Positions 4,640-33,944 of a stretch of DNA of 46,514 bases are shown here, one piece after another. Source of the DNA: Pseudomonadota bacterium. Lineage in GTDB: Bacteria; Desulfobacterota; Anaeroferrophillalia; Anaeroferrophillales; Tharpellaceae. How positions within the stretch are numbered: the stretch's first letter is position 1; each line of letters starts with the position of its first letter. Below the pieces are notes generated by a model. It did not search any database. It was not told where the DNA came from and worked only from the letters and a program-made list of their open reading frames with translations. The stretch spans positions 1 through 46,514 of the forward strand of contig WFRP01000068.1 of the NCBI GenBank assembly GCA_015486505.1. Direction: 5' to 3'. The position numbers were made by a program, and so were the translations under genes.

Positions 4640-5770
4640 ATGTGTCGGCTAAGTGCCATAATTTCAGATAGTTACTTTTCCCCAATGGAAAACATCATGG
4701 CCCTGGAAACGATGAAAGAGGGGCATGACGGTTCCGGTCTCGGACTGGTTTTGCGCGATTTAGGGGGTGAATTCGAGAATTTGAAAGAGTTCCCGATCCT
4801 CTCCGGGATCTGCAGTGAAGCGGGCTTGAAGACCATGGATGAGTACATGGTCAGCTTAGGTTTCAAAACCAAATACCTCTGGGACCCGAAGATTAATGAA
4901 GCCGGCTGTGGCATCAAATCCCGGGGCTTCTATTTCGCCCGGGCTTATGAATATCCGGACGAGATTAAAGACGCTGATGAAAAGGTTAAATTTGACCTCT
5001 TAGCCCAGACCCGGCTCGATCTACGGGAAATGGGCATGGCGGATGAATCGATCACGGTCTTCTCTTTCTGGCCTGATTTAATCACCTTGAAAGAAGTTGG
5101 TGATCCGCTGGATGTCGGCATCTTTTTCGGCCTTGACCAGAAATCTCTCCTGGCGAAGAATATCATGGCCCAGGGACGGCAGAACACTAACTATGCCATC
5201 AACCTTTACGCCTGCCATCCTTTCTTTCTCGAAGGTTATTCGACGATGACCAACGGCGAGAATACGGCGTTTATCCCGATTCGCGAGTTTTTGACCGGCC
5301 GGGGCCTGCCCGGTTATGTCGGTTATCGCAGCGACAGTGAGGTCTTCTGCCATATTCTCCATTATATGCGCAAGCAGCTCGGCTTCCCCCTGAAATATTA
5401 CAAAGATGTTATCACCCCGCTTTTTGACCGGGAAATGACCGAACGTTCCGACCGCAAGGCGATTGAGCTTATTAAACGCGTATTACGGCCTTTAACCATT
5501 GACGGCCCGAACTGCGTTATCGGTTCCGATATTGACGGTACGATTTTTATGGTTCAGGACGCCAAGAAACTGCGCCCCGGCGTCGTCGGCGGCGTTCCCG
5601 GCAAATACGCGCTGATGTCCGAAGTCTGCGGGGTTGATGCCGTAGTCCCTGAACGTGACCGCAGTAAAGATGTTTTCCCCATGAAATACGACATGGTGAT
5701 GATCAATAAAGATGCCAAGGAGATCAAGATATGGAATCAAAAGCACGGCTCGATGTCAACGGTCAACTGA
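4640..5770 (+). CDS. Archaeal-type glutamate synthase, class-II glutamine amidotransferase subunit
   Basis: Met-Cys N-terminus (MCRLSAII...) fits an Ntn-type nucleophile. AAGGAG RBS upstream. First gene of a three-gene split GltS set. Confidence 0.8.
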   Translation: MCRLSAIISDSYFSPMENIMALETMKEGHDGSGLGLVLRDLGGEFENLKEFPILSGICSEAGLKTMDEYMVSLGFKTKYLWDPKINEAGCGIKSRGFYFARAYEYPDEIKDADEKVKFDLLAQTRLDLREMGMADESITVFSFWPDLITLKEVGDPLDVGIFFGLDQKSLLAKNIMAQGRQNTNYAINLYACHPFFLEGYSTMTNGENTAFIPIREFLTGRGLPGYVGYRSDSEVFCHILHYMRKQLGFPLKYYKDVITPLFDREMTERSDRKAIELIKRVLRPLTIDGPNCVIGSDIDGTIFMVQDAKKLRPGVVGGVPGKYALMSEVCGVDAVVPERDRSKDVFPMKYDMVMINKDAKEIKIWNQKHGSMSTVN

Positions 5771-7386: not shown

Positions 7387-7447
7387 GTCGAAGTGCAAGC
7401 AAAAAACTGTTTTCATTAAATGTTTACATCTATTTTCAGGTCAAAAA

Positions 7448-9778
7448 ATGTACGAAATTAATGGTATTGTAGATAATCAGAGGGTTTCCTCCAAAGAATT
7501 GGAAGAGCAAATTCAGGCGGCCGTAAAAAACGGTGAGCGGCAGCTGCGCGTCATTGCCGACGGCCAGCACGGCATCGGCGGCCGGCTCTGGCCGACCCCG
7601 GAAGAGAAAACCATAATCATTGACGGAACTTCGGGTCAGCGGGCCGGCAGCATGGGCATGATGGGGACAAAAATCACCATCAACGGCTCCTGCTCCGATG
7701 ATGTCGGCTGGCTCAACTGCGGCGCCGAGATTACGGTTTTAGGCGACGTTGCCAACGGCGCTCATAATGCCGGAGCCCAGGGCAAACTCTATGTCCAGGG
7801 CGGCGGCGGTGCCCGATGTGACACCATGACCAAGTTCAACCCGCGTTTCGCCCCGCTTGAATCCTGGTATTTCCGTGATGTCGGCGACTCATTTGCTGAA
7901 TTTAAAGCCGGCGGCATCGCCGTGGTCTGTGGTGTCAACCCGCGTCATCCCGACTCGGTCCTCGGCTACCGGCCCTGCGTCGGCATGGTCGGCGGCACAA
8001 TCTATGTGCGCGGTACGGTTACCGATTACAGCGCCAAAGACAGCCGCCTTGAGGATCTGAACGATCAGGACTGGAAATGGCTGACCGAGAATATTGAGCC
8101 CTACCTTAAAGCAATCGATCGCTTATCATATCTTGATGAATTAACCGCAAACCGGGGTGACTGGCATAAAATTGTCGCCCTGACTCCGACGGAGCGCAGC
8201 AGCCTCGGCGGTGCCCGTCTGGCGATGGCTAAATTTCGCCTCGAAGTCTGGGATAAGGACATCGGCAAGGGCGGGATCGTCGGTGAACTTCTGCCGGTTG
8301 AAAACCGCACTATTCTGCCCTACATTACCTACGGTGAAGACCGGCGTTTCTATCCGAGCTGGGATAACGACCGTTTCACCGCCCCTTGTGAGTATAACTG
8401 CCCGACCGGGATTCCGACCCAGACCCGAACCCGCCTGATTCGTGAGGGCCGGCTCGAAGAGATGCTGGCACTGGTGCTTGAATATTCGCCGCTGCCGGCA
8501 ACCGTTTGCGGCAAGGTCTGCCCGAATCCCTGTATGGATGCCTGCAGCCGCAACGTCTGGCTCCGGGAACCGGTAGAAATCGGCTATCTCGGCAGTTTAA
8601 GCCTCAACACTCCGGCCCCGGAAAAAGCCGCCGCCCGGAAAGAAAAGGTTGCGGTCATCGGCGGGGGACCCGCCGGTCTTGCCGCCGCCTGGAAACTCGC
8701 GTTAGCGGGTATTCAGGTTACGATTTTTGAAAGCGCGGCGGAACTCGGCGGTAAAATCTACCAGTGTATTCCGGAAGAGCGTCTGCCCCGGGAGATTCTA
8801 AACGCCGAACTTGAGCGGTTTAAAACCCTCGGGGTTGATGTCAAAACCAATACCGCCGTAACCGCGGATAAATTTGCCGAAATTAAAAAAGAGTTCGCAG
8901 CGGTGGTCTTGGCCGGCGGCGCCCACGCCCCGCGGATGATCCCCTTCCCCGGCTATGAAGATGTTATTCCCGGAATTACTTTCCTTAAAGCCCTGAATAA
9001 CCGGCAGCCGATTAAAATGGACGGCAAACGGGTCGTCATTATCGGCGCCGGTAATGTCGGTATGGATATCGCGGTTGAAGCCTATAATCTGGGGGCGGCT
9101 TCGGTGATTGCGGTCGACATTCAGGCCCCGGCCAGTTTCGGCAAGGAACAGCAGATGGCGGCGGCTCGCGGCACCAAAATTCTTTACCCCAAATTTACCG
9201 ACCGCTATGTTAAAGAGGAAAAGAAAATCTATTTTAAAGACGGCAGTTTCCTCGATGTCGATGCCGTGCTGATCTCGATCGGTGAAAGCCCGGAACTTGA
9301 TTATCTGCCTGAAGATATGGCCAAGGATCGCGGTTATTTAAAGGTCGATCAATGGGGCCGCACTAATTACAAAGGTCTTTATGCCGCCGGTGATGTTACG
9401 GCCCCGGGCCTGATCACCAATGCTCTGGGAGCCGGGCGTTATACGGCGGAAGCCGTAATTGCCGATTTTGACGGCGTTAGCCTTGTGGATCGTAACGCGA
9501 CTATGATCGACTATGACCGGATCAAATCCGAATATTATGAACGGGACCGCCAGAAAGCCGGTGAAGATGGTGATACTGAAGCCCTGCGCTGTCTCTCCTG
9601 CGGCACCTGCCGCGACTGTTCGACCTGCGAAGAATCCTGCTTCCGCGGGGCGATTACCCGGGAAGAAACTGAAGATGGCGGTTTTCAATATGTCGTCAAT
9701 GAAAACCAGTGCATCGGCTGCGGTTTCTGTGTCGCGGTCTGTCCCTGCGGCATCTGGCAGATGAATCCGGCGTCATAG
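7448..9778 (+). CDS. Fusion of the GXGXG domain (GltB domain 3), a GltD-like NAD(P)H/FAD oxidoreductase and a C-terminal 2x[4Fe-4S] ferredoxin
   Basis: Glycine-rich repeats (GQHGIGG, GTSGQRAGSMG, GDVANGAHNAGAQG). Dinucleotide folds VAVIGGGPAGLAAAWKLA and VVIIGAGNVGMDIA. C-terminal CLSCGTCRDCSTC and CIGCGFCVAVCP. The start is moved from track 7340 to ATG 7448 (MYEINGIV), downstream of the preceding stop at 7384-7386. Confidence 0.8.
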   Translation: MYEINGIVDNQRVSSKELEEQIQAAVKNGERQLRVIADGQHGIGGRLWPTPEEKTIIIDGTSGQRAGSMGMMGTKITINGSCSDDVGWLNCGAEITVLGDVANGAHNAGAQGKLYVQGGGGARCDTMTKFNPRFAPLESWYFRDVGDSFAEFKAGGIAVVCGVNPRHPDSVLGYRPCVGMVGGTIYVRGTVTDYSAKDSRLEDLNDQDWKWLTENIEPYLKAIDRLSYLDELTANRGDWHKIVALTPTERSSLGGARLAMAKFRLEVWDKDIGKGGIVGELLPVENRTILPYITYGEDRRFYPSWDNDRFTAPCEYNCPTGIPTQTRTRLIREGRLEEMLALVLEYSPLPATVCGKVCPNPCMDACSRNVWLREPVEIGYLGSLSLNTPAPEKAAARKEKVAVIGGGPAGLAAAWKLALAGIQVTIFESAAELGGKIYQCIPEERLPREILNAELERFKTLGVDVKTNTAVTADKFAEIKKEFAAVVLAGGAHAPRMIPFPGYEDVIPGITFLKALNNRQPIKMDGKRVVIIGAGNVGMDIAVEAYNLGAASVIAVDIQAPASFGKEQQMAAARGTKILYPKFTDRYVKEEKKIYFKDGSFLDVDAVLISIGESPELDYLPEDMAKDRGYLKVDQWGRTNYKGLYAAGDVTAPGLITNALGAGRYTAEAVIADFDGVSLVDRNATMIDYDRIKSEYYERDRQKAGEDGDTEALRCLSCGTCRDCSTCEESCFRGAITREETEDGGFQYVVNENQCIGCGFCVAVCPCGIWQMNPAS

Positions 9779-19618: not shown

Positions 19619-20641
19619 TCATTTCCCATCGTCCCGGCCGGCACCGCGATTCCAGGCAATCCGGGCAGCCCCAAGTAATGCCGCTTCCGGATTGAGCACC
19701 ACCTTGACCGGAATTTTTTTCATCCAGTCGGACATCCGCCCTTTCGCGGTAAAGCCGTTTGTAAACTGCCCCTGGCGCAGATAGTCAATAATTTTTGCCG
19801 GGATCCCGCCGGCCAGATAAAGTCCGCCGGCCGCCATGCCGGTAAGGGCCAGATCTCCGGCAACCCGGCCCAATATCGCGGTAAAATACGAAATCGCAAG
19901 AAGCGCCAGGTTGTCACCGGCGGCGGCCGCCGCCACAACTTCAGCCCCACTGAACTTTTCAATTGACAATTCCGATTTCTCATCCACACATAATTTATCT
20001 TGCCCATCGCGACATTTGAGCCAGCAGAATATATTTACCAGTCCCGGCCCCGAGAGCAGTCGTTCACAACTGACCCGCCCGAACTTTTTCATTAAATAGC
20101 GCCACAATTCCACCTCAGCTTCATCCCGGGGGGCAAAATCGACGTGACCTCCTTCCGAAGCCAGGATACGCGGCCTTTCACCACCCAGCAGAAAGGCCGT
20201 GCCCAAACCGGTTCCCGGAGCCAGAATCGCAATAGGGCTATCCCGATCCGCTGGGGGTTCGCCATTTTGCAGTATGGCAAAATCCGGCTCTTTAAGGCCA
20301 GGTATGGCCGCGGCCGTAGCAAAAAGATCATTGACCAGAAAAACCTGTGCCCAGCCAAGCTCTCTTCGTAAAACCTGTTCATCCAGTTTCAGGCCCAGGT
20401 TGGTCGCCTCAACCCGCCCGGCCACCACCGGCCCCGCAACCCCGAAACAAGCGGCCGCAAGCTCCCCCGCAACGAGATTAAGCCGTAAAAATTCTTTAAC
20501 CCGGCGCAAAAACTCGATTTCACCACAACTTGCAACTCTTTGAGTACTCACCCGTTCAAGAAAGCCGGCAGCGGCATAAAAAAGGCCGATATCGGTTTTG
20601 GTCGCCCCGATATCAGCCGCAAGGATATATTTATTTTTCAT
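19619..20641 (-). CDS. glk: Glucokinase
   Basis: 340 aa with N-terminal ILAADIGATKTDIGLF ATP motif. Bacterial Glk-family length and layout. Confidence 0.85.
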   Translation of the reverse strand: MKNKYILAADIGATKTDIGLFYAAAGFLERVSTQRVASCGEIEFLRRVKEFLRLNLVAGELAAACFGVAGPVVAGRVEATNLGLKLDEQVLRRELGWAQVFLVNDLFATAAAIPGLKEPDFAILQNGEPPADRDSPIAILAPGTGLGTAFLLGGERPRILASEGGHVDFAPRDEAEVELWRYLMKKFGRVSCERLLSGPGLVNIFCWLKCRDGQDKLCVDEKSELSIEKFSGAEVVAAAAAGDNLALLAISYFTAILGRVAGDLALTGMAAGGLYLAGGIPAKIIDYLRQGQFTNGFTAKGRMSDWMKKIPVKVVLNPEAALLGAARIAWNRGAGRDDGK

Positions 20642-20674
20642 AATATTTTAAATCTATCGTAACTATCTATCTTT

Positions 20675-22444
20675 CTATCCATCTGCTTTAAGTATCTCGA
20701 CTATATTTGCCAGTTCCGACTCAACATTGGCAACCTTCCAGTCAAGCGCCAGGATTCGGCGTTGACGATGCCAAAGAGCCTCATAATCACCCCGGGCCTG
20801 CGCCGCAATCAGGGTGGCAAAGCTATAATCAGCTTCGGGCAATGCCAAATCTTTCTCGAGATTACCGTTTATCTGCAAAAAGAGGCCATGGTTAGCGTCG
20901 CCTTTATGCAGTTGACCGGTTGAATGCAGAAAGCGCGGGCCGAAGCCGATAGTTACCGGCACCCGGCAACTAGACAGCAAATTTTTGCGTAAATCCCGAA
21001 GAACCTGTTTCAAAGATTCAGTCTGCGGGAGATAGGCCATAATCGCGATATAATCACCGGGCTGCGCCATCTCGACAAATGCGGTAAGGGCGCCGGCAAG
21101 ATCACTGACTTCGCAAAAATGATGGCTGCCGCTTATTTTGAGATTATCCCCGTCAACCAGCCTGACAGGCGCCGGCATTTTGCCGCTCTCCTGCCAGGTC
21201 GCCATGGCCTGACGGGCGCCGATTTTGGCAGCTTCGACATCGGGCTGATCAAAGGGGTTAATCTTTAAAACGGCTCCGATTGCGGCAGTTGCCATCTCGA
21301 AGCGCCAGATCTCCCGGCCCAGATCAATTTTATCAGCCAATTCAATCAGGACAAAAGGTTCATTTGATCTCTGAATTTCCTGCACAGTCTGATCAAAACG
21401 CTTATCATCACCGGCAAGCTGCAGGCAAAGATAGACCGCGTCCCCGGCCGGACCCTTATCTTGTCCCCTGAACGGCAGTTCATCACCGTCTTCAACGATG
21501 ACCGGCACCAGCCCGAATCCTGATTTTCCAGTACTTTCGGCGATAAGCTGTTCGAGCCAGACGGCAAACGGCTTAATTGAGGGCGCTAAAACCAGAAACA
21601 ATTTGTCGCGGCCGCAAAGCGCCATCTCTCCAAGGAAAGCACCCAGCGCCAGGGCCGGATTTTGCCGGAGCGAATTTTCTCCGGCCCCCATTTCCGCGAT
21701 CTTCCGGGCTGATTGCAGAATTTCCGCAATCGCCACCCCCTGCAGCGCCGCCGGGAGCAGACCGAAACCGGTCAGGGCCGAAAACCGGCCCCCGACCGCC
21801 GGTGGAGTGGAAAAAATCCGGCGAAAACCCTGCCCCCGGGCCAGTTTTTCCAGATTTGACCCCGGGTCGGTCAGCGCCACAAAATTAGCCCCGGGGTTAT
21901 CTTTAATCCGGGAAATCTTATCATAAAAAAAGTTAAAGAAAGAGATGGTTTCCAGAGTGCCGCCCGATTTACTCGCGACCAGAAAAAGGGTAGTCGCCAA
22001 CTCAGCGGCGGCCGCAATCCGAGCCACACTTTCAGGGTGAGTACTGTCAAGAATCGTAACCGGCAAAAAACCCGGTTTGACGGGAAAAATTTCAGCCCAG
22101 ACCTCGGCAATCAGACTGCTGCCCCCCATCCCGAGAACCACCGCCCGGCTGTAACCTGAAGCGACAATTTCATCGGCAAATGATAAAAGTTCGGCAACCG
22201 CACCCTGCATGGTTTCCGGCAATTCCAGCCAATCAAGCCGATCCGTAAGTTCCGGAACCTGAGCCCCGGCGGCCAGGCTTTCATCCCAGACCCGGCCGTC
22301 CCGCTGCCGGATCCGGGCTTCAAGATCGGTTTTCTCCCAGTCTTTAAGCCGCGCCAACCAACTCGCCGGGCTTGAACCTGAGGCAATTATCATATTTTCC
22401 GTTTTGAAATCCAGGGTTCGCATTGGCAAAATTATCCTCGACAC
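20675..22444 (-). CDS. pgi: Glucose-6-phosphate isomerase (PGI/SIS family)
   Basis: 589-aa ORF with PGI-family sugar-isomerase architecture, between tkt and glk. The GTG at 22444 overlaps the tkt stop. An alternative ATG at 22423 (MRTLDFK) is equally plausible. Confidence 0.75.
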
Positions 22445-24450
22445 AAGGTCCGGGCCCGCCGGATAATCTCGGCCACGGTAATCTTATATTCCTGAAAAAG
22501 TTCCGCGGCCGGCGCCGAAGCGCCGAAGTGATCGATGGCAATAATATCACCCTGATCACCAAGATAACGATGCCAGCCCATTGACGCCGCCGCCTCAATC
22601 GCCAGTCGCCGCCCGCCCGGCGGCAAGACCCGATTACGGTAGGCTTTCGACTGCCGGTCAAACATAGCCCAGCCGGGCATACTCACCACCCGGGCTCTGA
22701 TGCCGCTCTCTTTAAGCTGCGCTGCCGCGGCCAGGGCCAGGGCCAGTTCCGAGCCCGTGGCAATCAGGGTAATATCGGCATCACGCAAATCTTCACCGAC
22801 AACGTAGGCCCCGCGATGGACATTTTTCAAGGCGTTATCAGCCACCTCCGGCAATGTCGGGACATTCTGCCGGGTCAAAATAAGCGCGGTCGGGCCCTCC
22901 TGCCGTTTTAGGGCTTCAGCCCAGGCCGCGGCTGTCTCATTGGCATCAGCCGGACGGATAACATTGAGATTAGGAATCACCCGCAAACTGGCAAGCTGCT
23001 CAATCGGCTGATGGGTCGGCCCATCTTCACCGACCCCGATACTGTCATGCGTAAACACATAAATTACCGGCAATCTCATCATCGCCGCCAGACGAATTGC
23101 CGGTTTCATATAATCACTGAAAACCAGAAAAGTCCCGCCGAAAACCCGGAGGCCCTTATGCAATGCCATACCATTAAGAATCGCCCCCATCGCGTGCTCG
23201 CGGACGCCGAAATGGATATTGCGGCCGGCAAAATCGGGCGCGGCAAAATCTTTGCCGGCAGCGATTACGGTTTTATTCGAAGGAGCAAGATCGGCCGAGC
23301 CCCCCAGCAATTCGGGCAAGATTCCGGCCAGAGTATTTATCATTTTACCGGAGACCGAGCGGGTCGCCTGGCCTTTTGCGTCCGCCGGAAATGTCGGTAA
23401 GGATTTCTCCCAATCGATGGGCAGATCCCCCGCCTGGCGCCGTTCCCATTCGGCCATAAGTTCAGGATACTGTTTCTTGTAGTCCGCCATCAGCGCCTGC
23501 CAGCGGGATTCGGCTTGCGCCCCGGTATCCTTTATTTCACGATAGGCCGCGTAAACATCATCTTCCACCAGAAAAACGGGAGCGACCGGAAAACCAAGCT
23601 GCTTTTTCGCATTAACGGTCTCAGCCGCGCCCAGAGGGGAACCGTGGGCCCCGGCCTTATCCTGCTGGGCGGGACTGCCGAAACCGATATGGGTTCTGAC
23701 CGCTATCAGACTCGGCTGTTCGCGCTCTTCCCGGGCCGCAGCCAGGGCCGCGGCAATTGCCGCACAGTCATTACCGTCCGCAACCTCAATAACCTGCCAG
23801 CCGTAAGCCCGGAAACGGGCGGCCCGATCTTCAGTAAACGTGATTTCGGTATCACCTTCGATTGAAATATGGTTGTCATCATAAAGAAAGATAAGTTTTC
23901 CCAATTTGAGGTTTCCGGCCAGGGATGCAGCTTCGTGGGAAAGCCCTTCCATCAAATCACCGTCGCCGACAATGCCATAAGTGAAATGATCAACCACATC
24001 AAAACCGGGCCGATTAAAAGCTGCCGCCAGCGCCCTTTCCGCCATCGCCATCCCGACTCCGGCCGCCAGCCCCTGACCCAAAGGCCCGGTCGTGGTTTCG
24101 ACCCCCGGGGTATGATGAAACTCCGGATGTCCCGGTGTCAAACTGTTTTTCTGACGAAAATTCCGCAGTTCATCAAGACTCAGCTCAAAGCCGCAAAGAT
24201 GCAGCAGCGCGTAGAGCAGGGCTGAGCCGTGCCCGGCGGAAAGAATAAAACGATCGCGATCGGGCCAGCCGGGATTTTCCGGGTTTTGTTTCAGAAAACG
24301 ACTCCAGAGGGTATGCGCCATGGCTGCGGCCCCCATCGGCATTCCCGGATGCCCGGAATTTGCCTTGTCAACCATATCAACTGCCAGAAAACGAATCGTA
24401 TTAATACACTTTTCTTCCAAATTCACCGACATCGGCCTTAAAACCTCCAA
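22432..24450 (-). CDS. tkt: Transketolase
   Basis: 672 aa. ThDP-binding motifs ([24 protein letters not shown]), pyrimidine-binding and C-terminal domains are all present. Confidence 0.95.
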
Positions 24451-24566: not shown

Positions 24567-25169
24567 TCAAACGTTTTCCTCAACCTCCTCCCAACCGGTA
24601 ATCATTGCCAGCGTATAGGCGAGCAGGCTGCCGCCGGTGGTGGTCAGGTAGATATGGACCACCAGGAAGATTAACAAAACAAAAGCTACGGCTGTATGCA
24701 GCATAGCCACTCCGTCAAGCCGCGTGGTCAACCCCCAGTTGATCCAGTCATTATAGTAATAGTAAAGAATCCCGGAAACAAACTGCAGCGGCAGCAGCAC
24801 AACCTTCAGGAAAAGATAGGAAAGGGCCTGGAGAGGGTTGAGTTTCCGCTCCGGGCTCTTATGGAAAGGATGCGGTTCGCCTTTAAGTATGCCGTAAAGA
24901 TAGTAATGAACGATTTTTTCAAGGTTGCCGAATGTCGGTTGATAATGACGCCATTGTCCGGTGGTCAAGTGCCAGAATATCGCGAACGCGGTCAGAATCA
25001 ACAGCGTCCAGCCGGCAAGGTTATGCCAGTAACAGGCCCTGGCGTACCCGAACAATTTGAGGCTGCCGTGAACTTCAAAACCGCTGAGCAGCAGAAAAAT
25101 AATTAAAAAAGCCTGAAACCAGTGCCAGAAACGTTCAAACCGGGTATAGAGATGAATTTTTACTTTCAT
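24567..25169 (-). CDS. Membrane b-type cytochrome (PhsC / hydrogenase cytochrome b-like, PF01292-type)
   Basis: 200 aa with four hydrophobic helices carrying conserved His residues (FWHWFQA, WHLTTGQW, HTAVAF, HIYLTT). ATGA start/stop overlap with the upstream octaheme cytochrome gene. Confidence 0.8.
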   Translation of the reverse strand: MKVKIHLYTRFERFWHWFQAFLIIFLLLSGFEVHGSLKLFGYARACYWHNLAGWTLLILTAFAIFWHLTTGQWRHYQPTFGNLEKIVHYYLYGILKGEPHPFHKSPERKLNPLQALSYLFLKVVLLPLQFVSGILYYYYNDWINWGLTTRLDGVAMLHTAVAFVLLIFLVVHIYLTTTGGSLLAYTLAMITGWEEVEENV

Positions 25170-26803
25170 GATTTACCTCCATCTTGACGCCGCTTAGAGT
25201 TGACAAAACGCAGACCGGCATGCAGCAGCAGAGCCAGAACCGTCAGCCCCAGCAGAACCCAGCCCGATCGATCGATAAACGACCAGCGATCCCGCCCGGG
25301 CAGATAAAAACCTCTTAAATTTTCCAGACGGCCATTATTGCGCCGATGACACACAGCACACGACAACGCTTTTTCTTTCGGCGCAATCATATGGGTTATC
25401 GGCCAATACATTGCGGTTTCAATAAAATCGACCTTGCCGCTGAACGGCAGGCCGGCTTCTTCCATACCGACCCGGCAGGCTTTAACCCAGTCATAATCTG
25501 CCCAGTAGGCCCCGGTTCCTTTTTTGCCGAAAAGATAAGGTATCAGCAAACTTTGTTCAACCGGATCATAAGGCTGTTTACCCCGCATAACCTTGAACGG
25601 AAAAATCCGGGCATTTTTATCAGCATAATCACCCTGCAGTGAATTAAGCTCCAAAGGCCGGGCTGACGGCTTGACTTTATCGCCTTCATGGAGATAGCTC
25701 ATCCTGCCGTTATACCAGAAATATTCCGGCACCACATTTTCCGCCCAGCGCATATCCCCTTTTTTACTGTGATAAATCACATTGCCGGCTTTATCTTTTT
25801 TAACAATCGGCTTTCCGGCGGCAGTGAATTTTCCGGCAGTACTCCAATCCCACCACATCTTGGTAAACACACCGCCCCGGGCATAGCGCGGGATATGACA
25901 AGTCTGACAGGCGACTTTAGCGGTATGATGATTCAATATCTCAATGTTCTTATGCGGCGCCCGACTGTGGCAGGATTCGCAGGCCAGCCGCCAACCGTCA
26001 TCCGCCGGCAGCGCGAACTGATGTTTACCGGCTGCCGGCCGCGAGTAATAACGCCCGGATATTTGGTGAGTTCTGGCAACATGACAGGTACTGCAGGAGT
26101 AATTTAACCCCTTGACATCCATATGCACATCAAGTTCCTTGCCGGCCTTGAACAGTGAGGAATCAAGATCGCCGTGTTTAACCCCGTCACCGCCGCCGCC
26201 GTAGAAATGACAGCGGCCACAGGTTGTCCGGCTGGTTTTGCCAACCTTCCGGGCAACTTTACGCAAATCAACCGCGGGAAAAACCTTTTTCCCGAATTTT
26301 CTCTCTTTGTAAACGGGATCTCCGCAAGCTGTGGGAAATTTTCGATAACTCCCGGTCGTATCGTGACAGACCAGACAATCCACCCGCTCAGAAGATGCAA
26401 AATCGAAGTTCTTGTTCTTCCAGCCATAGCCCGCGTGACAGCTGGTGCACCTGCACCAGTTCGACTGGGGGGAAATTCAGAAATTGTTGAGGGTTTTAGC
26501 CTTGCCCTCATCCTTTCTATCAGTTTTACGCCCGTCCCAGGTCCAGTGGATCGTATCATGTAGCTGCAGCGCCGCCAGGTTATGGCATTTAAGACAGGCT
26601 TTAGTCACCTCCGGCCCGGAAGCAAATTGACGATCAAGTTCCGGGAAACGACTGTGATCAGCGGTTGACAGCGATCCCGGCGCGACCCCGCGGGATAGCG
26701 TCTGTGCTGCTACCGTCTGTGCTGCTGCCGTCCTGGGGAAACCGCAACTCATCAACAAAAACAAAACTCCGACAAACAACCCGATGAAATATCGCTTTCG
26801 CAT
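25166..26803 (-). CDS. Octaheme c-type cytochrome, tetrathionate-reductase (OTR) family, with one in-frame TGA (codon 109, 26477-26479) as a candidate selenocysteine codon
   Basis: Track ORFs 26477..26803 and 25166..26383 are in the same frame. The 31 codons between them are open (ISPQSNWCRCTSCHAGYGWKNKNFDFASSER). The joined product has a lipoprotein-like signal peptide (LLMSC), exactly eight CxxCH motifs (CLKCH, CTSCH, CLVCH, CGRCH, CSTCH, CESCH, CQTCH, CAVCH) and a C-terminal TM helix. The second heme motif lies in the gap that the split ORF model leaves uncalled. Confidence 0.7.
26439..26467 (-). promoter_or_regulatory. SECIS-like hairpin 9 nt downstream of the in-frame UGA
   Basis: The minus-strand RNA is CAG-UCGAA-CUGGUGCAGGUGCACCAG-CUG. 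CUGGUG pairs with CACCAG, leaving an apical GCAGGU. As I recall it, the E. coli fdhF SECIS apex is GGUUGCAGGUCUGCACC. The apical GGU lies 28-30 nt from the U of UGA. Confidence 0.5.
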
Positions 26804-27138
26804 CAGCCCAACCCCCCTTTTTTCTGCAGTTCTTCCAATAATCCCTCTCTCACCTTCATAATTCCTTCAAAAAATTTCCGATTAGCAACCCGGTAATAGA
26901 CGGTTTTCCCTTCCCGCCGAAATTGCAGGGCACCCTGATCCCGCATCAGCCTGAGATGCTGGGAAACATTCGCCATTGAGACCTCAAGCCGCTCGGCCAG
27001 AGCTCCGACCGACATTTCATTTTCCCCGAGAAGATCCATAATCTTCAGCCGGGTCGGAGAAGAAAAAATCGTACAGAAAGAAGCGTGCAAAGCCACCAGA
27101 TCCGGCTCCCGAATTTTACCTTCGTCAAAACCAGCCAC
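26803..27138 (-). CDS. ArsR/SmtB-family transcriptional regulator
   Basis: 111 aa with a winged-HTH core (MSVGALAERLEVSMANVSQHLRLMRDQGAL). TGATG stop/start overlap with the cytochrome gene. Confidence 0.85.
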   Translation of the reverse strand: MAGFDEGKIREPDLVALHASFCTIFSSPTRLKIMDLLGENEMSVGALAERLEVSMANVSQHLRLMRDQGALQFRREGKTVYYRVANRKFFEGIMKVREGLLEELQKKGGLG

Positions 27139-27409: not shown

Positions 27410-28141
27410 ATGAAGCAACTAACTCGGCTGCCGTCTCTCTCACCTCTGATCCGTTCCCGCATTAGTACCTTACAGGTTATTTTCTGCACCCAAAAAAAAG
27501 ATTTAATAACCAGAAAATGTTCTGATAAAAGTACTTATTTGCGGGCCGAAAAAACCCGATTGGGTTGCGAAATAAGTTCCCGCATTAGCTTTATTCTCCT
27601 GTTTTTATGCTTCCTGGCCACCGCTGCCGCACCGTTCTCAGCGCATAGCGCCGAGCGGCCGGGATACCATATCGGTCCGGGTGATATTCTTGAGATTTCA
27701 GTCTGGAAAGAGGAATCCTTAAGCCGTGAAATAATCGTGCCCCCGGATCGGATAATCACTTTCCCGCTGATCGGCGATATCAACATTACGACCATGACAG
27801 TTACTGATCTGCGCCGGGAAATCAGTAAACGGGTGCAGGATTTTGTCCCGGACGCCACGGTTACGGTTATGCTGCGCCAGATAAACTCCCTGAAGGCCTA
27901 CGTTATCGGCAAAGTCAACAAGCCCGGCATCTTTCCGATTGATTTGGAGACCACGGTCATGCAGGTTCTGGCAATGGCCGGCGGCCTTAATCCCTTTGCC
28001 GCCGAGAGTAAAATCTATATTCTACGCCATGAAAACGGGGTAATGAAAAAAATCCCCTTCGACTATAACGAAGTCGAAAAAGGCAAGAACCTGGCCCAGA
28101 ATATCATCTTGAAACGTGGCGATGTTATTGTGGTACCCTGA
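27410..28141 (+). CDS. Polysaccharide export protein (Wza/SLBB-type, PEP-CTERM-locus subfamily-like)
   Basis: The mature part has the Poly_export/SLBB signature (YHIGPGDILEISVW...FPLIGDI...GKVNKPG). The signal peptide ISFILLFLCFLATAAAPFSAHSA is present. The start is uncertain. ATG 27410 reads through the repeat element, and an in-frame TTG at 27560 would give a normal-length signal peptide. Confidence 0.75.
   Translation: MKQLTRLPSLSPLIRSRISTLQVIFCTQKKDLITRKCSDKSTYLRAEKTRLGCEISSRISFILLFLCFLATAAAPFSAHSAERPGYHIGPGDILEISVWKEESLSREIIVPPDRIITFPLIGDINITTMTVTDLRREISKRVQDFVPDATVTVMLRQINSLKAYVIGKVNKPGIFPIDLETTVMQVLAMAGGLNPFAAESKIYILRHENGVMKKIPFDYNEVEKGKNLAQNIILKRGDVIVVP
27453..27588 (+). repeat. A-B-C copy of the mosaic intergenic repeat, with a degenerate C hairpin
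   Basis: GTTCCCGCATTAGTACCTTACAGGTTATTTTCTGCACCC...AGAAAATGTTCTGATAAAAGTACTTATTTGCGGGCC...GGGTTGCGAAATAAGTTCCCGCATTAG. Confidence 0.9.
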
Positions 28142-28204
28142 ACCCACCCAACCAACAACACGCTGACACCAACCGACATCAGTTTTCAGGATACCTAAAA
28201 CACC

Positions 28205-29986
28205 ATGCAGCAAAGCGAAGGCATTTCCCTGGATCAGATCCGGGGCATAATCAGACGGCAGAAAAACATTTTCATAACTGTTTTTCTGCTGGTCTGGTTT
28301 GTCGCCATCGCCCTGGCCCTGATCCTGCCGCCGGTCTATCGGGCCGAGACCACAATCCTGATTGAAGAACAGCAGATCCCCCAGGAATTTGTCCGCACAA
28401 CCATCACCAGCTATGTTGAGGAACGCCTCCAGGTTATTACGCAACAGATAATGAGCCGGCCGCGCCTGGAGGAGATCATAAAACGCTTCTCACTCTACCC
28501 GAAAATGAAGAAAAATCATACCCGTGAGGAGATTATTGACCGCTTACGCAAAGACATTTCGCTCAAAACCGTCAGCGCCGATGTCGTTGACCGGCGTACC
28601 GGCCGGCCGAGCACAGCGACGATCGCTTTCAACCTCTCCTACGAAGGCGCAAACCCCAGTACAGTTGCGAAAGTAACCAACCGACTGGCATCACTCTATC
28701 TCGAAGAAAACCTGCGGCAGCGGGAGAAACGGGTCAGCAATATTACCTCTTTCCTGCAACAGGAACATGATGGACTGAGCAAACAGATCAACGAGCTTGA
28801 AGATAAGCTCAGCGCGTTCAAGCAGCAGCACGGTCGTGAACTCCCGGAATCCAACAATGTCAATCTGCAGGCCGTCAACCGCCTGACCCGTGATCTGGAA
28901 CAGAATCGAATCCGGCTGAGCTCGCTGTATGAGCGTAAAATCTACCTTGAAGGACAGCTGTCCGGTATCGACCCACAGCAAAATCCACTCCGCAACGATG
29001 AGGGGCGGCTGTTGCTGCAGCCGGATGAACGGTTGAAATCATTGCGTTTGGAACTTTTGAATCTGCAGTTACGCTATTCCGACAAACACCCGGATGTCAT
29101 AAAGACCAAACGTGAAATCACCAAACTTGAGGCCCGCCTGCCGAAACAACAATCCGGCGCGGTCGAACGCGAAGCCCAAAAAGAACAACTCAGGAAACTT
29201 AAACTGCAGGAGAAAGAGCTTATCGGCAAACTGGGCCGCAAACATCCGGATCGAATCCGCCTGGAAAAAGAGATCAACAAACTTGAACTGGAGATTGAAA
29301 AAAGCCGCGGTGATTTAAAGAACAGTGAACCGGGACTTGATGTGACGCCGGAAAACGCCACCAACCCGGCTTATATCAATATCAAGGTGCAGATTGAATC
29401 CACCAACCTGGAAATTGCCGCCCTGAAAGCCGCAATCAAACGAAACCAGGAGAAACTTGAAGAGTACCAGGCCCGCCTCGAAAACGCGCCCCTGGTCGAA
29501 AGAGACTACAATAAAATGCTGCGGGAGTTGGAGCAGGCTCAAGCTCGAAATGCGGATATCTCCCAGAAATTGACGGAAGCTCAGGTCGCCCAGGAAATGG
29601 AAGAGTCCCAACAGGGGGAACGGTTCACCATCATCGACCCCGCTTTAACTCCGGAAAAACCGTCCAAACCCAATCGTCTGGCCATAGCTTTAATCGGTTT
29701 TGTCCTCGCTCTGGGCTTTGCCACCGGCATCGCGGCCCTGCGGGAAAATCTTGATACAACCATTAAAAGCGGTGCCGATCTGGCCCGATTGACCGGACTT
29801 CCAATACTGACAACCATGCCGTTAATGGAAAATAAGCGCGAACGGCGGCGCCGGCATATGCGCTATATTTTCATCATTTTATTTATTCTCGGAGCTCTGG
29901 CAGGCGCCCTGGCGGCGATTCATTTTTATTACATGCCGCTCGATATTATCTGGATAAAGATTATGCGCCGCCTGGGAATTCAATAA
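28205..29986 (+). CDS. Chain-length determinant / GumC-family polysaccharide co-polymerase (PEP-CTERM-locus type)
   Basis: 593 aa with an N-terminal Wzz-like TM segment, a long coiled-coil region and a C-terminal TM segment. Confidence 0.8.
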   Translation: MQQSEGISLDQIRGIIRRQKNIFITVFLLVWFVAIALALILPPVYRAETTILIEEQQIPQEFVRTTITSYVEERLQVITQQIMSRPRLEEIIKRFSLYPKMKKNHTREEIIDRLRKDISLKTVSADVVDRRTGRPSTATIAFNLSYEGANPSTVAKVTNRLASLYLEENLRQREKRVSNITSFLQQEHDGLSKQINELEDKLSAFKQQHGRELPESNNVNLQAVNRLTRDLEQNRIRLSSLYERKIYLEGQLSGIDPQQNPLRNDEGRLLLQPDERLKSLRLELLNLQLRYSDKHPDVIKTKREITKLEARLPKQQSGAVEREAQKEQLRKLKLQEKELIGKLGRKHPDRIRLEKEINKLELEIEKSRGDLKNSEPGLDVTPENATNPAYINIKVQIESTNLEIAALKAAIKRNQEKLEEYQARLENAPLVERDYNKMLRELEQAQARNADISQKLTEAQVAQEMEESQQGERFTIIDPALTPEKPSKPNRLAIALIGFVLALGFATGIAALRENLDTTIKSGADLARLTGLPILTTMPLMENKRERRRRHMRYIFIILFILGALAGALAAIHFYYMPLDIIWIKIMRRLGIQ

Positions 29987-30060
29987 CTTACGGAGTGTTT
30001 TTTCGGACGTCCGGACAAATCTCGGATGTTTGCCGCCCAACCCGCGTTATAAGGATTTCA

Positions 30061-30981
30061 ATGTCATACGATAAACTGAAAAAAGCTCTGGCCCGGGCCC
30101 GGCAGGAGGATCAGGAACGCCGGGCCAAACAACCGGCCCCGACTGAAACCGCTGAAACTCCAGCTACGATTGCAAACGACAAACCGGGCCGGGAAACCGC
30201 AGCGGTAAATTCCGCCTTTAAGCAGCGTGAAACTGAAACAGGAGCGGCGCCGACAACCGCACCGACAACCGCACCGACAACCAATCGCCGAACAAACAAT
30301 ATCAAAGGAGCCGCCCGGACCAGAGTTGCCGAAATAAACCTTGAAAGCCTGGAAAAATACAAAATCATCTTCGATTACCGGCGGCATCCGGCCGCCGATC
30401 AAGTCAAGATTCTGCGAACCCAGTTGCTGCAGCGGCTGACCCCTGACGGCGGCAACGCAGTCCTGATGACAAGCCCGAAACCGGGTGAAGGCAAAACCGT
30501 CAACGCCATCAATCTGGCAATCAGCCTGGCGCAGGAGATTGAAAGAACCGTACTGCTGGTTGACGCCAACCTGCGCAATCCCACTATAACCGACTATTTC
30601 GGCCTGCCGCGGGAAAAAGGCTTATCAGACTACCTGCTCGGCGAGGTAAGCATTCCGGAAATCCTGATTAACCCCGGCATTGACAAACTCACCCTGCTAC
30701 CCGGCGGCCGCCCGCTGACAACCTCATCCGAAGTCCTGGGCGCGTCCCGCATGGCCGAACTGGTCAAAGAAATGAAAGAGCGCTATCCCGAACGGATTCT
30801 GGTTTTCGACGGCCCCGACATCCTGACGGCGGCGGATTCTCTGCTTTTTTCCAAATATGTTGACGGTATTGTCCTGGTGGTTGAAGCCGAAAGTACAACC
30901 CGCAACGACACCAAACTGGCGATTGAACGTATCGGCAAAGAACATCTGATCGGAACCATTCTCAACAAAGCCCGTGAATAG
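30061..30981 (+). CDS. CpsD/CapB-family tyrosine autokinase-like P-loop ATPase (exopolysaccharide locus)
   Basis: Walker A SPKPGEGKT. Walker A'/B-like VLLVDANLRNP and ILVFDGP. AAGGA lies before ATG 30061 (MSYDKLKK). No Tyr-rich C-terminal tail is visible. Confidence 0.75.
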   Translation: MSYDKLKKALARARQEDQERRAKQPAPTETAETPATIANDKPGRETAAVNSAFKQRETETGAAPTTAPTTAPTTNRRTNNIKGAARTRVAEINLESLEKYKIIFDYRRHPAADQVKILRTQLLQRLTPDGGNAVLMTSPKPGEGKTVNAINLAISLAQEIERTVLLVDANLRNPTITDYFGLPREKGLSDYLLGEVSIPEILINPGIDKLTLLPGGRPLTTSSEVLGASRMAELVKEMKERYPERILVFDGPDILTAADSLLFSKYVDGIVLVVEAESTTRNDTKLAIERIGKEHLIGTILNKARE

Positions 30982-31003
30982 AAAGATTACTGGAGAACCC
31001 ATT

Positions 31004-32164
31004 ATGTACGAAGATTTTTACAATTTTCAGGAAAAACCTTTCGAATTGATACCCAATCCGAATTTTCTCTATATGAGTTCGGGACATGATAATGCTTACA
31101 CCCATCTGGAATACGCGGTCCGTGAGAATAAAGGCTTTGTCGTGATCTCGGGAGAGGTCGGCTGCGGCAAAACCACCCTGATCAACTATCTTTTAAGTAA
31201 AGTCCCGACCGATTTGAAGATCGGTTTGATCAGCCATACGGATATCAACCCCGAGCTTTTCTTAAAACTCATCTGCCGCAAATTCGGCCTTCAATATAAT
31301 GGCCTTGACAAAACCGAAATGATAATCCTTTTTCAGGATTTCCTGCTGCGCTCCCGGCAGCAGCAGATCCGGGTCGCGCTGATTATCGATGAGGCCCAGA
31401 ACCTTCCGGATCAGACCTTGGAGGAAATCCGGATGCTCTCCAATCTGGAGACGGAAAAGGAGCATCTGATTCAGATCATTCTGGTCGGCCAACCGGAATT
31501 ACAGCAGAAACTCAGGCGCCCCCACCTGCGCCAGTTTCTGCAACGGGTGACCGTCCATTATCACCTGGAAGGCTTAAAAGACCAAAACGAACTCAAAGAA
31601 TATATCCAGCACCGACTCCGGGTTGCCGGCTGTCCCGCATATACTACACTGTTCAACGATCAGGCAATTTCAGCGGTCTGGGCCGGGAGCCAGGGAATCC
31701 CGCGTCTCATCAACTATATTTGCGATATGGCCCTGGTTCATGGCTATGCCGACGGTCTGACAACCATTACGGCAGAGGTTGTCAACGCCGTCATCGAAAC
31801 CCGGACGCAAAGCACTCTGTTCACCGCGGCCACACAGAATAAGGCCGAACCGGCCGAACTAACCGCACAGCCCTATCCCGCGAGCGAAGACACCCGGGCA
31901 GATATTGACAAATTAGGAGCCCGGCTCTCATTTCTTGAGAGCATAGTTGAGGCTCAATCCTGCCAACTCCAGGAATTATTTTCTGCCCGCTCAAGCCGGG
32001 ACCAGCTGACTCTGGAAATTTTTCGACTGCTGCAAAAAGATATTGAAAAAAGATGGGATTTAAATGCCCGCCACCTGAAGGCTCTGATTGCCCTGAAAGA
32101 GCTGAGACAGAAACTATCACTCAAAACTGAAAAACCGGGCCCTAAAATAAAAAAAGGCTCGTAA
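31004..32164 (+). CDS. ExeA-like AAA ATPase (PEP-CTERM-system-associated secretion ATPase type)
   Basis: MYEDFYNFQEKPFELIPNP N-terminus typical of ExeA-like proteins. Walker A GEVGCGKTT and Walker B LIIDEAQNL. GGAGA lies 7 nt before ATG 31004. Confidence 0.8.
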   Translation: MYEDFYNFQEKPFELIPNPNFLYMSSGHDNAYTHLEYAVRENKGFVVISGEVGCGKTTLINYLLSKVPTDLKIGLISHTDINPELFLKLICRKFGLQYNGLDKTEMIILFQDFLLRSRQQQIRVALIIDEAQNLPDQTLEEIRMLSNLETEKEHLIQIILVGQPELQQKLRRPHLRQFLQRVTVHYHLEGLKDQNELKEYIQHRLRVAGCPAYTTLFNDQAISAVWAGSQGIPRLINYICDMALVHGYADGLTTITAEVVNAVIETRTQSTLFTAATQNKAEPAELTAQPYPASEDTRADIDKLGARLSFLESIVEAQSCQLQELFSARSSRDQLTLEIFRLLQKDIEKRWDLNARHLKALIALKELRQKLSLKTEKPGPKIKKGS

Positions 32165-32211
32165 CTATTCAGCCAAATCCGGGGTCGGGTGCGACTTTTC
32201 TCCGCCAGGCG
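32161..32211 (+). repeat. Solo end fragment of the TIR element
   Basis: GTAACTATTCAGCCAAATCCGGGGTCGGGTGCGACTTTTCTCCGCCAGGCG matches the first 51 nt of the E arm. The TAA stop of the ATPase gene (32162-32164) lies inside the GTAAC of the repeat. Confidence 0.8.
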
Positions 32212-32294
32212 AAAAATTTCAGAACGACCAGGTCAAAATTACGATCTGCAGAAATTGTGGTCTCTCCGGCTGCGGGACATACATCGCCGCAACT

Positions 32295-33944
32295 CTATTT
32301 CACCTCTTTTCCCGGGATATATTGATCCAGCAGCGGCAGGGCTTTAGCCATAAATGATTGCAGGCGCTTATCGGCAGCTTTTATATCTTCAAATTCACCC
32401 ACCGGCGTAATCAGACGCACTAAAGCGCCGTCAGTACGCTGTTTCGTCAAAGCATCCCAGAAAACATAGATTTTCAATTGATAAGCGTTCGTCAGATTGC
32501 GGCCGCGCTGCGGGAACCAGTAATAAACCAGCTGACGAAAATCCCCTTTCAGCATAAAAGCCCGATTAACTGAAATCCGGCCGTAACCGGCAATCGCCAA
32601 AACCTGCTCGCCGGCCCGTTTAAAAACCCAGCCACTGCCGGAAAGACAGGAGGTCGGTGAGTGGATTGATTCGCCTTTACGTTGACTTTCGTAATAGGCT
32701 GTATAAAAATTAATCTCCTGACCACGGTTATTATAATAATCAATGATAAAGTAATCACTAAGATCCAGGGCATCGATAAATTTCTGCGCCATAGCCCGGC
32801 GCCGGCCGGTCCAGGGCCCAATCCGCAGGGGAAAACCGGACAGAGGCTTTATTGCCGGAATTTTCTCCCGAAACTCAACGTTTTTTGAGACCGCAAAAGT
32901 TGTAAGCATCATGATCGTCACGACTATCAGCATTATCATATGACGGCGGCCGGGATCCAGCCGCGGTTGCACCGGTTCACCGGCAGTTACAGACGCCGGC
33001 GAACCTGAATCCGCAACCCGCCCCGGAAGTTTGCCCAGCAACCACATTTCCAGAAGCAGAATCAGCAGGGTGATCATAAAAATCAGCCAACCGGAAAAAT
33101 CGTGCAGGAAACCTTCAGCAACCCGGGGGCCGAAAGGCTCATACAATATCCCGGTTGCAGCAATGCGGATACCGTTGGTCAAAACGATCAACGGGATTGA
33201 TGAAGCCACCAGCAAAAAGCGCTTCCAGAAAGGTGCCCGAAAAAACCAGGCCAGAATCAGGCTTAAAACTATAACGGGAAAGAGATAACGCAGACCGCTG
33301 CAGGCATCGACCACCTGCAGTTTGGTAAAACCGAGATCGATAATATTTCCCTCCCGACAGACCGACATATCGGCCATCTGCATAATCTTGACCCCGAGTT
33401 GGGAAGAGAGCAGTTTCAATTTTAATGATATGCGGTTATGCAGAAAACTCGGCAGGGGAAACATTGTCGGGATCAGCAGCAAGGGAAAGAAAATTACCTT
33501 GACCTTCTCCCAGCCCATATGCATCCAGGCCAGGGCTGACACCACCAGCCAGGCGGAAAGACAGAGGGTTAAATACTCCCCGCCCAACTCACCCAGCCAA
33601 TACAAGGATAAAGCCGAAATGAAAAAGATAAAACCGGCAAGAGAAAATCGATTCGGCAAACTTTTGAGCTCTAATCGTTTCTCCCAGATAATATATACAA
33701 TAACTGCCGGTACCAGATAGCAATAATTATAATCTTCACTATTCCAGTTCCCGACCATATGCAAAAGCCCATCCCGGTAAACTAATCCGAGCAAAGCGGC
33801 ATAAAGCAATATCACTGCGCCCCAAAAAGATCTTTTTTCAGTCACAATGTCACCACCAGAAAAGTTATAGTCGGCAAATTCCCGAAAAAATTGCGGCAAC
33901 CCCGCCATCTCAAAATCAGTAATGGCATTAACCGCAAAAGTCAA
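32295..33944 (-). CDS. Exosortase fused to a C-terminal EpsI-family domain
   Basis: 549 aa. The polytopic N-terminal half carries the exosortase signature region (EDYNYCYLVP..., VVDACSGLRYLF, TNGIRIA). The C-terminal soluble half resembles EpsI (methanolan biosynthesis) family proteins. Confidence 0.75.
   Translation of the reverse strand: MTFAVNAITDFEMAGLPQFFREFADYNFSGGDIVTEKRSFWGAVILLYAALLGLVYRDGLLHMVGNWNSEDYNYCYLVPAVIVYIIWEKRLELKSLPNRFSLAGFIFFISALSLYWLGELGGEYLTLCLSAWLVVSALAWMHMGWEKVKVIFFPLLLIPTMFPLPSFLHNRISLKLKLLSSQLGVKIMQMADMSVCREGNIIDLGFTKLQVVDACSGLRYLFPVIVLSLILAWFFRAPFWKRFLLVASSIPLIVLTNGIRIAATGILYEPFGPRVAEGFLHDFSGWLIFMITLLILLLEMWLLGKLPGRVADSGSPASVTAGEPVQPRLDPGRRHMIMLIVVTIMMLTTFAVSKNVEFREKIPAIKPLSGFPLRIGPWTGRRRAMAQKFIDALDLSDYFIIDYYNNRGQEINFYTAYYESQRKGESIHSPTSCLSGSGWVFKRAGEQVLAIAGYGRISVNRAFMLKGDFRQLVYYWFPQRGRNLTNAYQLKIYVFWDALTKQRTDGALVRLITPVGEFEDIKAADKRLQSFMAKALPLLDQYIPGKEVK

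Follow-up and report, generated by a model that had tools for sequence, protein, structure and literature searches.

We analyzed a 46,514-nt stretch of DNA (contig WFRP01000068.1 of assembly GCA_015486505.1), hereafter called the window, and focused on a minus-strand gene at 25166-26803 that is predicted to encode a selenocysteine (Sec)-containing octaheme cytochrome c of the octaheme tetrathionate reductase (OTR, TIGR04315) family. As the initial annotation of this DNA had described, the minus-strand open reading frames (ORFs) 26803..26477 (108 aa) and 26383..25166 (405 aa) were found to lie in one frame, with the TGA at 26479-26477 as the sole intervening stop. The 31 codons between them (110-140) are open and encode ISPQSNWCRCTSCH..., including the otherwise missing second heme motif, CTSCH, which falls in the stretch that is lost by conventional gene calling, and the joined product carries exactly eight CxxCH motifs (CLKCH, CTSCH, CLVCH, CGRCH, CSTCH, CESCH, CQTCH and CAVCH). 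The features of this gene on which the analysis centers are listed here.

25166..26803, minus strand: predicted complete 545-codon gene for an OTR-family octaheme cytochrome c selenoprotein, read as a single frame and matched to TIGR04315 and 1SP3; start ATG at 26803-26801, true stop UGA at 25168-25166, predicted Sec-UGA at codon 109
26477..26479, minus strand: in-frame UGA, predicted selenocysteine U109, at the OTR Cys64 column (from orthologs, the family alignment and the independent assembly L082)
26501..26503, minus strand: K101, which corresponds to OTR Lys56, axial ligand of the catalytic heme 2 (paired with the first K of GKKNSINNFC in the 1SP3 alignment; invariant in 83/83 family sequences; PMC3769277)
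26435..26449, minus strand: heme-2 binding motif C119-T-S-C-H123 of the catalytic heme (from the translation; aligned to OTR C74xxC77H78)
26453..26455, minus strand: C117, an extra Cys eight residues past the predicted Sec (22/22 Sec forms, 1/60 Cys forms among the genome loci), its codon lying within the 5' arm of the hairpin below
26442..26459, minus strand: predicted core hairpin of a selenocysteine insertion sequence (SECIS), with 5' arm CUGGUGC at 26459-26453, loop AGGU at 26452-26449 and 3' arm GCACCAG at 26448-26442

To assign the product to a family, we used the joined translation with Cys placed at the UGA codon. It matched the NCBIfam model TIGR04315 (tetrathionate reductase family octaheme cytochrome c) with 615.6 bits against a cutoff of 375 bits, over model positions 1-440 of 440 (residues 48-500), and it also matched Pfam PF11783. 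The sole PDB sequence match was Shewanella oneidensis OTR (PDB 1SP3, E = 1.7e-114), and this alignment placed GKAKTLNNF-U-ISPQSNWCRCTSCH on GKKNSINNF-C-VAISSNEPRCTSCH. The published description of OTR gives C74xxC77H78 as the binding motif of heme 2 and Lys56 as its ligand (PMC3769277), and counting back from C74 in this numbering identifies the UGA-aligned residue as OTR Cys64 and K101 as the counterpart of Lys56. The spacing of eight residues between K101 and codon 109, which the initial annotation had likened to that of Lys56 and Cys64, agrees with both the 1SP3 alignment and the published numbering. The predicted Sec site lies eight residues past the heme-2 Lys ligand and ten before the heme-2 CxxCH.

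An alignment of 83 family sequences showed that the UGA column is a conserved Cys column, holding Cys or UGA in 83/83 sequences, and that it is the only conserved Cys besides the 16 heme-motif cysteines, each of which is kept in 82-83 of the 83. Distant full-length relatives recovered by protein search have NNF-C-I at this column. The presumed geometry of Cys64 in the OTR pocket, as given in the initial annotation, is backed by this conservation and by a figure legend. According to that legend, the catalytic site of OTR comprises the heme-2 motif, the Lys ligand and "the cysteine residue" (bioRxiv 10.1101/2023.04.20.537704).

Next to the alignment stands a genome scan that used one genome per GTDB species and returned 80 loci. 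The codon at the UGA column was TGA in 21 of these, each from a different species, and TGC or TGT in the remaining 59 (60 gene copies, as locus L036 carries two; 54 TGC and 6 TGT); nothing else was found there. The TGA-form orthologs are 50-80% identical to the window product at the protein level and contain no further stops or frameshifts. Their metagenome-assembled genomes (MAGs) are labelled Thermodesulfobacteriota, Deltaproteobacteria, Desulfobacterales, Desulfobulbaceae, Dissulfuribacterales and Ca. Tharpella aukensis. A neighbour-joining tree, which carried no support values, grouped these 21 and the window as a single clade of 22 Sec forms, with two Cys forms, L016 and L081, as its sister pair. 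Furthermore, L082, an independent ENA assembly, differs from the window by 5 mismatches over 7934 nt and has the identical TGA.

We compared the window with its 21 Sec-form orthologs by codon position on both sides of the UGA, and obtained the following differences at positions 1 / 2 / 3.

Upstream of the UGA (residues 47-108): 0.29 / 0.26 / 0.55
Codons 110-140: 0.21 / 0.14 / 0.48
Downstream (residues 141-500): 0.25 / 0.21 / 0.55

The coding signature is alike in all three segments, and therefore the ribosome appears to read through the UGA. TGA terminates 10 of the 24 confident genes of the window, including the octaheme cytochrome gene itself and the adjacent arsR gene, and thus serves as an ordinary stop, which excludes an altered genetic code. 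Altogether, the locus is one intact gene for a respiratory octaheme enzyme, and its apparent stop almost certainly encodes Sec at the position of the catalytic Cys.

The same split is seen in public annotation. All of the closest relatives (57-76% identity) are recorded as proteins of 426-440 aa starting MSPQSNWCRCTSCH, i.e., just past the UGA column. Records P0002-P0007, P0013, P0021, P0071, P0086 and P0093 lack the signal peptide, heme 1 and the Lys ligand, and represent a systematic misannotation of the Sec clade. The truncated public MAG calls appear as "7-heme" proteins, and other calls, e.g., the window's own record P0001, begin still further downstream, at the cost of heme 2 as well. 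These truncated Sec-clade genes will be miscounted in surveys of multiheme cytochromes and of selenoproteomes.

The hairpin downstream of the UGA

Past the UGA, the mRNA reads 9 nt, CAG, UCGAA, a 7-bp hairpin and CUG, in this order, such that the stem begins 17 nt and the loop 24 nt past the UGA. The initial annotation had proposed a SECIS-like fold in which CAG and CUG form a lower stem beneath this apex. The perfect 7-bp hairpin CUGGUGC/AGGU/GCACCAG is present, and its stem and AGGU loop are kept in orthologs, whereas the lower CAG/CUG stem is not. The hairpin sits in codons N115-W-C-R-C-T-S121, and its overlap with CTSCH, the heme-2 motif, covers the first three codons of the latter. It fits all four published constraints of the bacterial SECIS consensus (PMC13188914, Fig. 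2 legend) and the published limit on minimum free energy.

Apical loop: 3-9 nt required, 4 nt here
Upper stem: 4-16 bp required, 7 bp here
Loop sequence: G in the first two loop positions, then G or U required, A-G-G-U here
UGA-to-loop spacing: 16-37 nt required, 24 nt here
Minimum free energy: -7.5 kcal/mol or lower required, -11.1 kcal/mol here (isolated hairpin)

In the window sequence taken alone, this hairpin is modest evidence. The fold of the 66 nt past the UGA was not significant (z = -0.74), and each strand of the window contains 30 perfect 7-bp hairpins, for an expectation of ~0.014 per 21-nt start window. The single-sequence statistics are indecisive, and the decision therefore rests on the comparative data, which put the hairpin far beyond chance.

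Codons +6 to +12 relative to the UGA read AAC UGG UGC AGG UG[C/U] ACC AG[C/U] in all 22 Sec forms, and the sole change in the stem among them is a C to U substitution in five loci, which turns a G-C pair into G.U. Just outside the hairpin, invariant residues vary synonymously: Cys +13 is TGT in 14 and TGC in 8, His +14 is CAT in 13 and CAC in 9, and Asn -3 is AAC in 13 and AAT in 9. The loop Arg at +9 is six-fold degenerate, and was found to be AGG in 22/22 Sec forms and CGC, CGT or CGG, but never AGG, in the 27/27 Cys forms that bear an Arg there. These synonymous sites provide strong support for selection on the hairpin at the RNA level in UGA forms only. In the sister pair, the loop Arg is CGC (L016) and CGG (L081), which fits relaxed selection on the loop after loss of the UGA.

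We also scanned metagenomes, comprising 241 million records, with the 23-nt hairpin motif. The scan returned 83 stretches, from which 80 matches were parsed: 76 have a TGA exactly 18 nt upstream, two have TGT, one has unrelated sequence upstream and one lies at a contig edge, so that 76 of the 78 informative matches carry the TGA. All 79 matches with readable flanks fall in OTR homologs, and the motif can serve as a specific probe for the Sec clade. The two TGT matches are apparent recent reversions. The match with unrelated upstream sequence (L137, metagenome contig Ga0209536_100669762) is a hairpin-bearing OTR fragment with ATA at the Sec column and, 10 codons before it, a stop; the contig may be chimeric or rearranged.

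Several Cys forms retain parts of this element. L016 (6190-6240) and L081 (971-2602) keep the NWCRC peptide and the stem together with their altered loop Arg codons, and L086 and L139 combine TGT at the column with an intact AGGU hairpin. All four look like recent Sec-to-Cys reversions in which the SECIS is at different stages of decay. A Cys equivalent to C117 is also present in L016 and L081, the nearest relatives of the Sec clade. C117 may be needed by the RNA, by the enzyme as a partner thiol for Sec, or by both.

With respect to the origin of the hairpin, its 3' arm, GCACCAG, consists of the end of Cys119, the whole of Thr120 and the start of Ser121, codons that are already the commonest in Cys forms. 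Its 5' arm, CUGGUGC, arises from Asn-Trp-Cys; most Cys forms have N-[E/Y]-[P/A] in its place. The SECIS may have taken over codons already present in the heme motif (GC ACC AG) for its 3' arm, forcing E/Y to W and P/A to C for its 5' arm. If so, an RNA structure dictated residues close to the active site.

The proposal that Sec replaces Cys in the catalytic pocket gained backing from the family match, the 83/83 column, the TGA orthologs and the selection on the hairpin. Together, these results support the prediction that Sec replaces the catalytic-pocket Cys and is directed by an fdhF-like SECIS just downstream, and we regard a genuine Sec-containing OTR-family octaheme cytochrome with an in-frame SECIS as highly probable.

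Alternative explanations for the in-frame UGA

Several observations weigh against this assignment. First, tRNA-Sec, selA, selB and selD were not found in the 46.5-kb window or in 1.35 Mb of related loci. The tRNA scan found no tRNA in the window and no tRNA-Sec in the 21 Sec-form loci; there were no sel genes among the window ORFs, and tblastn with E. coli SelA, SelB and SelD detected nothing in the window or in the 1.35 Mb of loci. The presumed Sec competence of the host rests on its apparent Desulfobacterota-type affiliation. Second, an Rfam scan of the window at gathering thresholds and a permissive scan of 26300-26600 gave no SECIS match, only a spurious lncRNA; these scans are uninformative, as none of the families scanned matches this bacterial in-frame hairpin. 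Third, no compensatory double changes were found in the stem among the 22 Sec forms, only the G-C to G.U change, and support for the structure comes from synonymous-site conservation rather than from covariation. Fourth, the hairpin codons also encode the conserved C-T-S of the heme motif, and their conservation is partly at the protein level. Finally, the catalytic role assigned to Cys64 draws on one figure legend together with conservation, and the native function of OTR is called cryptic in the preprint that contains this legend (bioRxiv 10.1101/2023.04.20.537704).

A first alternative is that the UGA is recoded but not as Sec, by near-cognate readthrough (Trp, Cys or Arg) that the hairpin stimulates, or that the hairpin is a translational pause or regulatory structure. 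Stable hairpins past stops can stimulate readthrough, and the absence of Sec machinery from the window and the related loci searched would be consistent with such a role. However, the UGA aligns exactly with the catalytic Cys, the hallmark of a Sec/Cys pair, and the hairpin fits all of the bacterial SECIS constraints, including the loop G-G/U and the spacing, and resembles the SelB-binding fdhF apex. The loop AGG is fixed only alongside the UGA; of three Cys-revertant lineages, two have drifted to CGC (L016) or CGG (L081). NCBI annotates Sec in members of TIGR04315. We consider this alternative improbable.

It could also be argued that the hairpin is a by-product of N-W-C-R-C-T-S protein conservation and codon bias, and that the real SECIS, if any, lies elsewhere. 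The lack of compensatory double substitutions would agree with this, as would the prevalence of the 3' arm codons in Cys forms (TGC 43/60, ACC 42/60, AGC 19/60). This explanation seems less probable still, because protein conservation does not account for the six-fold degenerate Arg (AGG in 22/22 Sec forms and 0/27 Cys forms), and the Asn, Cys, Thr and Ser codons are fixed inside the stem while the same residues just outside it vary (Cys +13, Asn -3). Furthermore, W +7 and C +8, from which the 5' arm derives, are essentially restricted to the UGA clade, and a comparison of orthologs revealed no alternative conserved structure downstream of the UGA.

Alternatively, the TGA might be a real stop in a pseudogene or split gene, so that the cell would make no more than a 108-aa fragment with one heme and/or a six-heme protein of 405 aa that starts at the GTG at 26383. 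Conventional ORF calling yields exactly these 108-aa and 405-aa ORFs, and public gene calls are likewise split (the 405-aa P0001 and a 108-aa call in L082). Yet the same TGA is found in 21 species at 50-80% protein identity without other stops or frameshifts, and codons 110-140, which would be untranslated in a split gene, show the highest conservation of any segment (75% aa identity and a third-position excess) and include the catalytic heme-2 motif, such that a split would remove the active site. Nor does a pseudogene explain the freeze of synonymous sites in the hairpin. On the conserved TGA, the equal coding pattern on both sides of it and these frozen sites, we excluded this explanation, to which we assign a very small probability.

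Last, and least probable of all, a sequencing or assembly error, for which one base change from TGC or TGT would be enough, was excluded by the same TGA in the independent assembly L082 (5/7934 differences) and by the comparative data (TGA at this column in 21 genomes and 76 metagenome contigs).

Genomic context and proposed mechanism

The octaheme cytochrome gene is flanked on the minus strand by two genes, and its product has a predicted helix at the C-terminus.

26803..27138, minus strand: ArsR/SmtB-family regulator (NF033788, 79.3 bits)
24567..25169, minus strand: cytochrome b561 / PhsC-like membrane subunit (PF01292, 86.4 bits; NF011582, thiosulfate reductase cytochrome b subunit, 116 bits, below cutoff)
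25202..25264, minus strand: predicted C-terminal transmembrane helix of the octaheme cytochrome, residues ~514-534, GWVLLGLTVLALLLHAGLRFV, with a conserved His (read from the translation and seen in homologs)

The stop of arsR overlaps the ATG of the octaheme cytochrome gene by 1 nt (TGATG), and the stop of the latter overlaps the ATG of the cytochrome b gene by 4 nt (ATGA). Because of these overlaps, the arsR-octaheme cytochrome-cytochrome b segment (24567-27138, minus strand) is taken to be a translationally coupled operon. Among the 80 genome-scan loci, which include Sec and Cys forms, 79 have a cytochrome b homolog after the OTR gene, as do L081 and L082; the sequence of L050 ends at the OTR gene. 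Of the 21 Sec-form loci, 15 have an arsR homolog immediately before the OTR gene; no Cys-form locus has one there.

The cytochrome begins with an N-terminal signal sequence, which was read off the translation. OTR homologs have in common a C-terminal GFY[LM]PGRD segment, after which comes a hydrophobic helix containing a conserved His (LLHAGLR); the alignment with the crystallised chain of 1SP3 stops before this segment. The helix could be a membrane anchor in contact with the cytochrome b partner.

Other genes were observed around the operon. Directly downstream of it (19619-24450, minus strand) are genes for transketolase, a transaldolase/phosphoglucose-isomerase-type protein and glucokinase; transketolase is in the same position in 11 of 21 Sec-form loci (L001-L010 and L013), and is a syntenic lineage marker. 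Positions 27410-33944 contain a PEP-CTERM/exosortase exopolysaccharide cluster with an export protein, a chain-length determinant, a tyrosine autokinase, an ATPase and the VPLPA-CTERM-specific exosortase XrtD (587 bits). Two overlapping plus-strand ORFs at 5731-9778 encode a ferredoxin/glutamate-synthase-like protein and, as the second product, an NAD(P)-binding oxidoreductase. The oxidoreductase gave sub-threshold scores of 178 bits for YgfK, a putative selenate reductase subunit, and of 113 bits for NF045663 "diclust_near_Sec". In-frame TGA codons were not found in either ORF, and a scan of the window for other in-frame TGA candidates returned only artefacts in non-coding frames.

The simplest model for the product is a periplasmic, membrane-tethered octaheme cytochrome c of the OTR (TIGR04315) family. 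SelB and Sec-tRNA(Sec) would recognise the 7-bp AGGU hairpin and insert Sec at codon 109. Positioned next to the Lys-ligated heme 2, the selenolate might then attack the S-S (or S-Se) bond of a substrate, for which tetrathionate, polysulfide or a related sulfur or selenium compound are candidates, and the resulting Se-S adduct could be reduced via heme 2 and the seven-heme wire. Menaquinol would supply the electrons by way of the co-transcribed cytochrome b subunit, presumably the partner that oxidises quinol.

OTR-family octaheme cytochromes are widespread in sulfur-cycling bacteria, and their physiological substrate is still unclear. A natural swap of Sec for Cys at the sole conserved non-heme Cys speaks for a role of this residue as a redox nucleophile and favours chemistry on S-S or Se bonds; it also singles out a concrete residue and clade for the study of OTR chemistry. 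We propose, tentatively and as a possibility that we think doubtful, that the Sec clade has a Sec109/Cys117 selenenylsulfide couple by heme 2 and that, in addition, the SECIS dictated active-site-proximal residues. Such a couple, if true, would be a second, independently evolved heme-plus-Sec-plus-Cys centre for S-S or Se cleavage, analogous to U325/C239 of the Geobacter protein MccSep discussed below, and would point to the reduction of polysulfide, tetrathionate or selenite, and not of nitrite, as the native chemistry of the OTR family.

Relation to known selenoproteins and SECIS elements

The initial annotation held that no multiheme cytochrome selenoprotein had been described, a statement that is outdated. 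The MccSep/ExtKL protein of Geobacter sulfurreducens (GSU2937-2936), predicted in 2007 and characterised in 2025-26, is a pentaheme Sec-dependent polysulfide reductase in which Sec and a heme-ligating Cys are essential for polysulfide reduction (PMC13510729). Furthermore, TIGR04315 appears in a 2026 review among the selenoprotein families annotated in GenBank, with one Sec and with WP_331457571.1 as an example; the entry has "-" in the motif column and "GA" as the source, and gives no SECIS, distribution or function (PMC13188914). Among the papers searched, none analyses Sec-containing TIGR04315 proteins.

The window product resembles MccSep as a periplasmic multiheme cytochrome c of Desulfobacterota that has one Sec (a predicted one in the window product) by catalytic heme 2, Sec- and Cys-type homologs, a SECIS directly 3' of the UGA, and a proposed Sec attack on S-S or Se bonds with a partner Cys. 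The precedent of MccSep (PMC13510729) makes such Sec-based chemistry plausible. However, the two belong to different families, and NF040886 (ExtKL) was absent from the NCBIfam matches of the window product at E <= 0.001. The window product has eight hemes and MccSep five; the active heme is Lys-ligated in OTR and His/Cys-ligated in MccSep, and the Sec of MccSep is distant from the heme motif in sequence. MccSep is experimentally proven, and the window gene is predicted from sequence. The likeness is functional and does not reflect family membership.

With regard to OTR itself (S. oneidensis SO4144, 1SP3), an enzyme with tetrathionate, nitrite or hydroxylamine reductase activity, the window product shares full-length homology, eight CxxCH motifs, K101 as the equivalent of Lys56 and the GK-x6-NNF-[C/U] segment. 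It differs in having a UGA where OTR has the catalytic-site Cys64, which would be replaced by a functional analogue if the UGA is decoded as Sec, and an extra Cys two residues before the heme-2 motif (NWCRC here versus NEPRC). In addition, the window gene encodes a C-terminal membrane helix and has an upstream ArsR-family gene and a downstream cytochrome b gene, and the hosts of Sec forms are Desulfobacterota-type MAGs and not Shewanella.

Like the SECIS of E. coli fdhF, the hairpin lies immediately downstream of the UGA within coding sequence, and its apex shares UGCAGGU...GCACC and the G-G-U loop. The fdhF apex GGUUGCAGGUCUGCACC, as given in the initial annotation, proved exact when checked against E. 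coli K-12. Unlike that of fdhF, the hairpin lacks a bulged U, its loop is the 4-nt AGGU in place of the fdhF GGUC closed by an A-U pair, and its stem starts 17 nt after the UGA in comparison with 11 nt in fdhF, which is two codons nearer. The hairpin is fdhF-like in its apex and is not a copy.

The window gene is most simply a further member of an already flagged, uncharacterised selenoprotein family and not a new class. It is like the GenBank Sec-containing TIGR04315 proteins in belonging to the same family and in having one Sec, with WP_331457571.1 likened to it by the family listing and not by the Sec column. New here are the placement of the Sec site at the Cys64 position, the structure of the clade, the predicted SECIS and its overlap with a heme motif, the Sec-clade-specific Cys117, the linkage to arsR and the systematic truncation of these genes in public MAG annotation.

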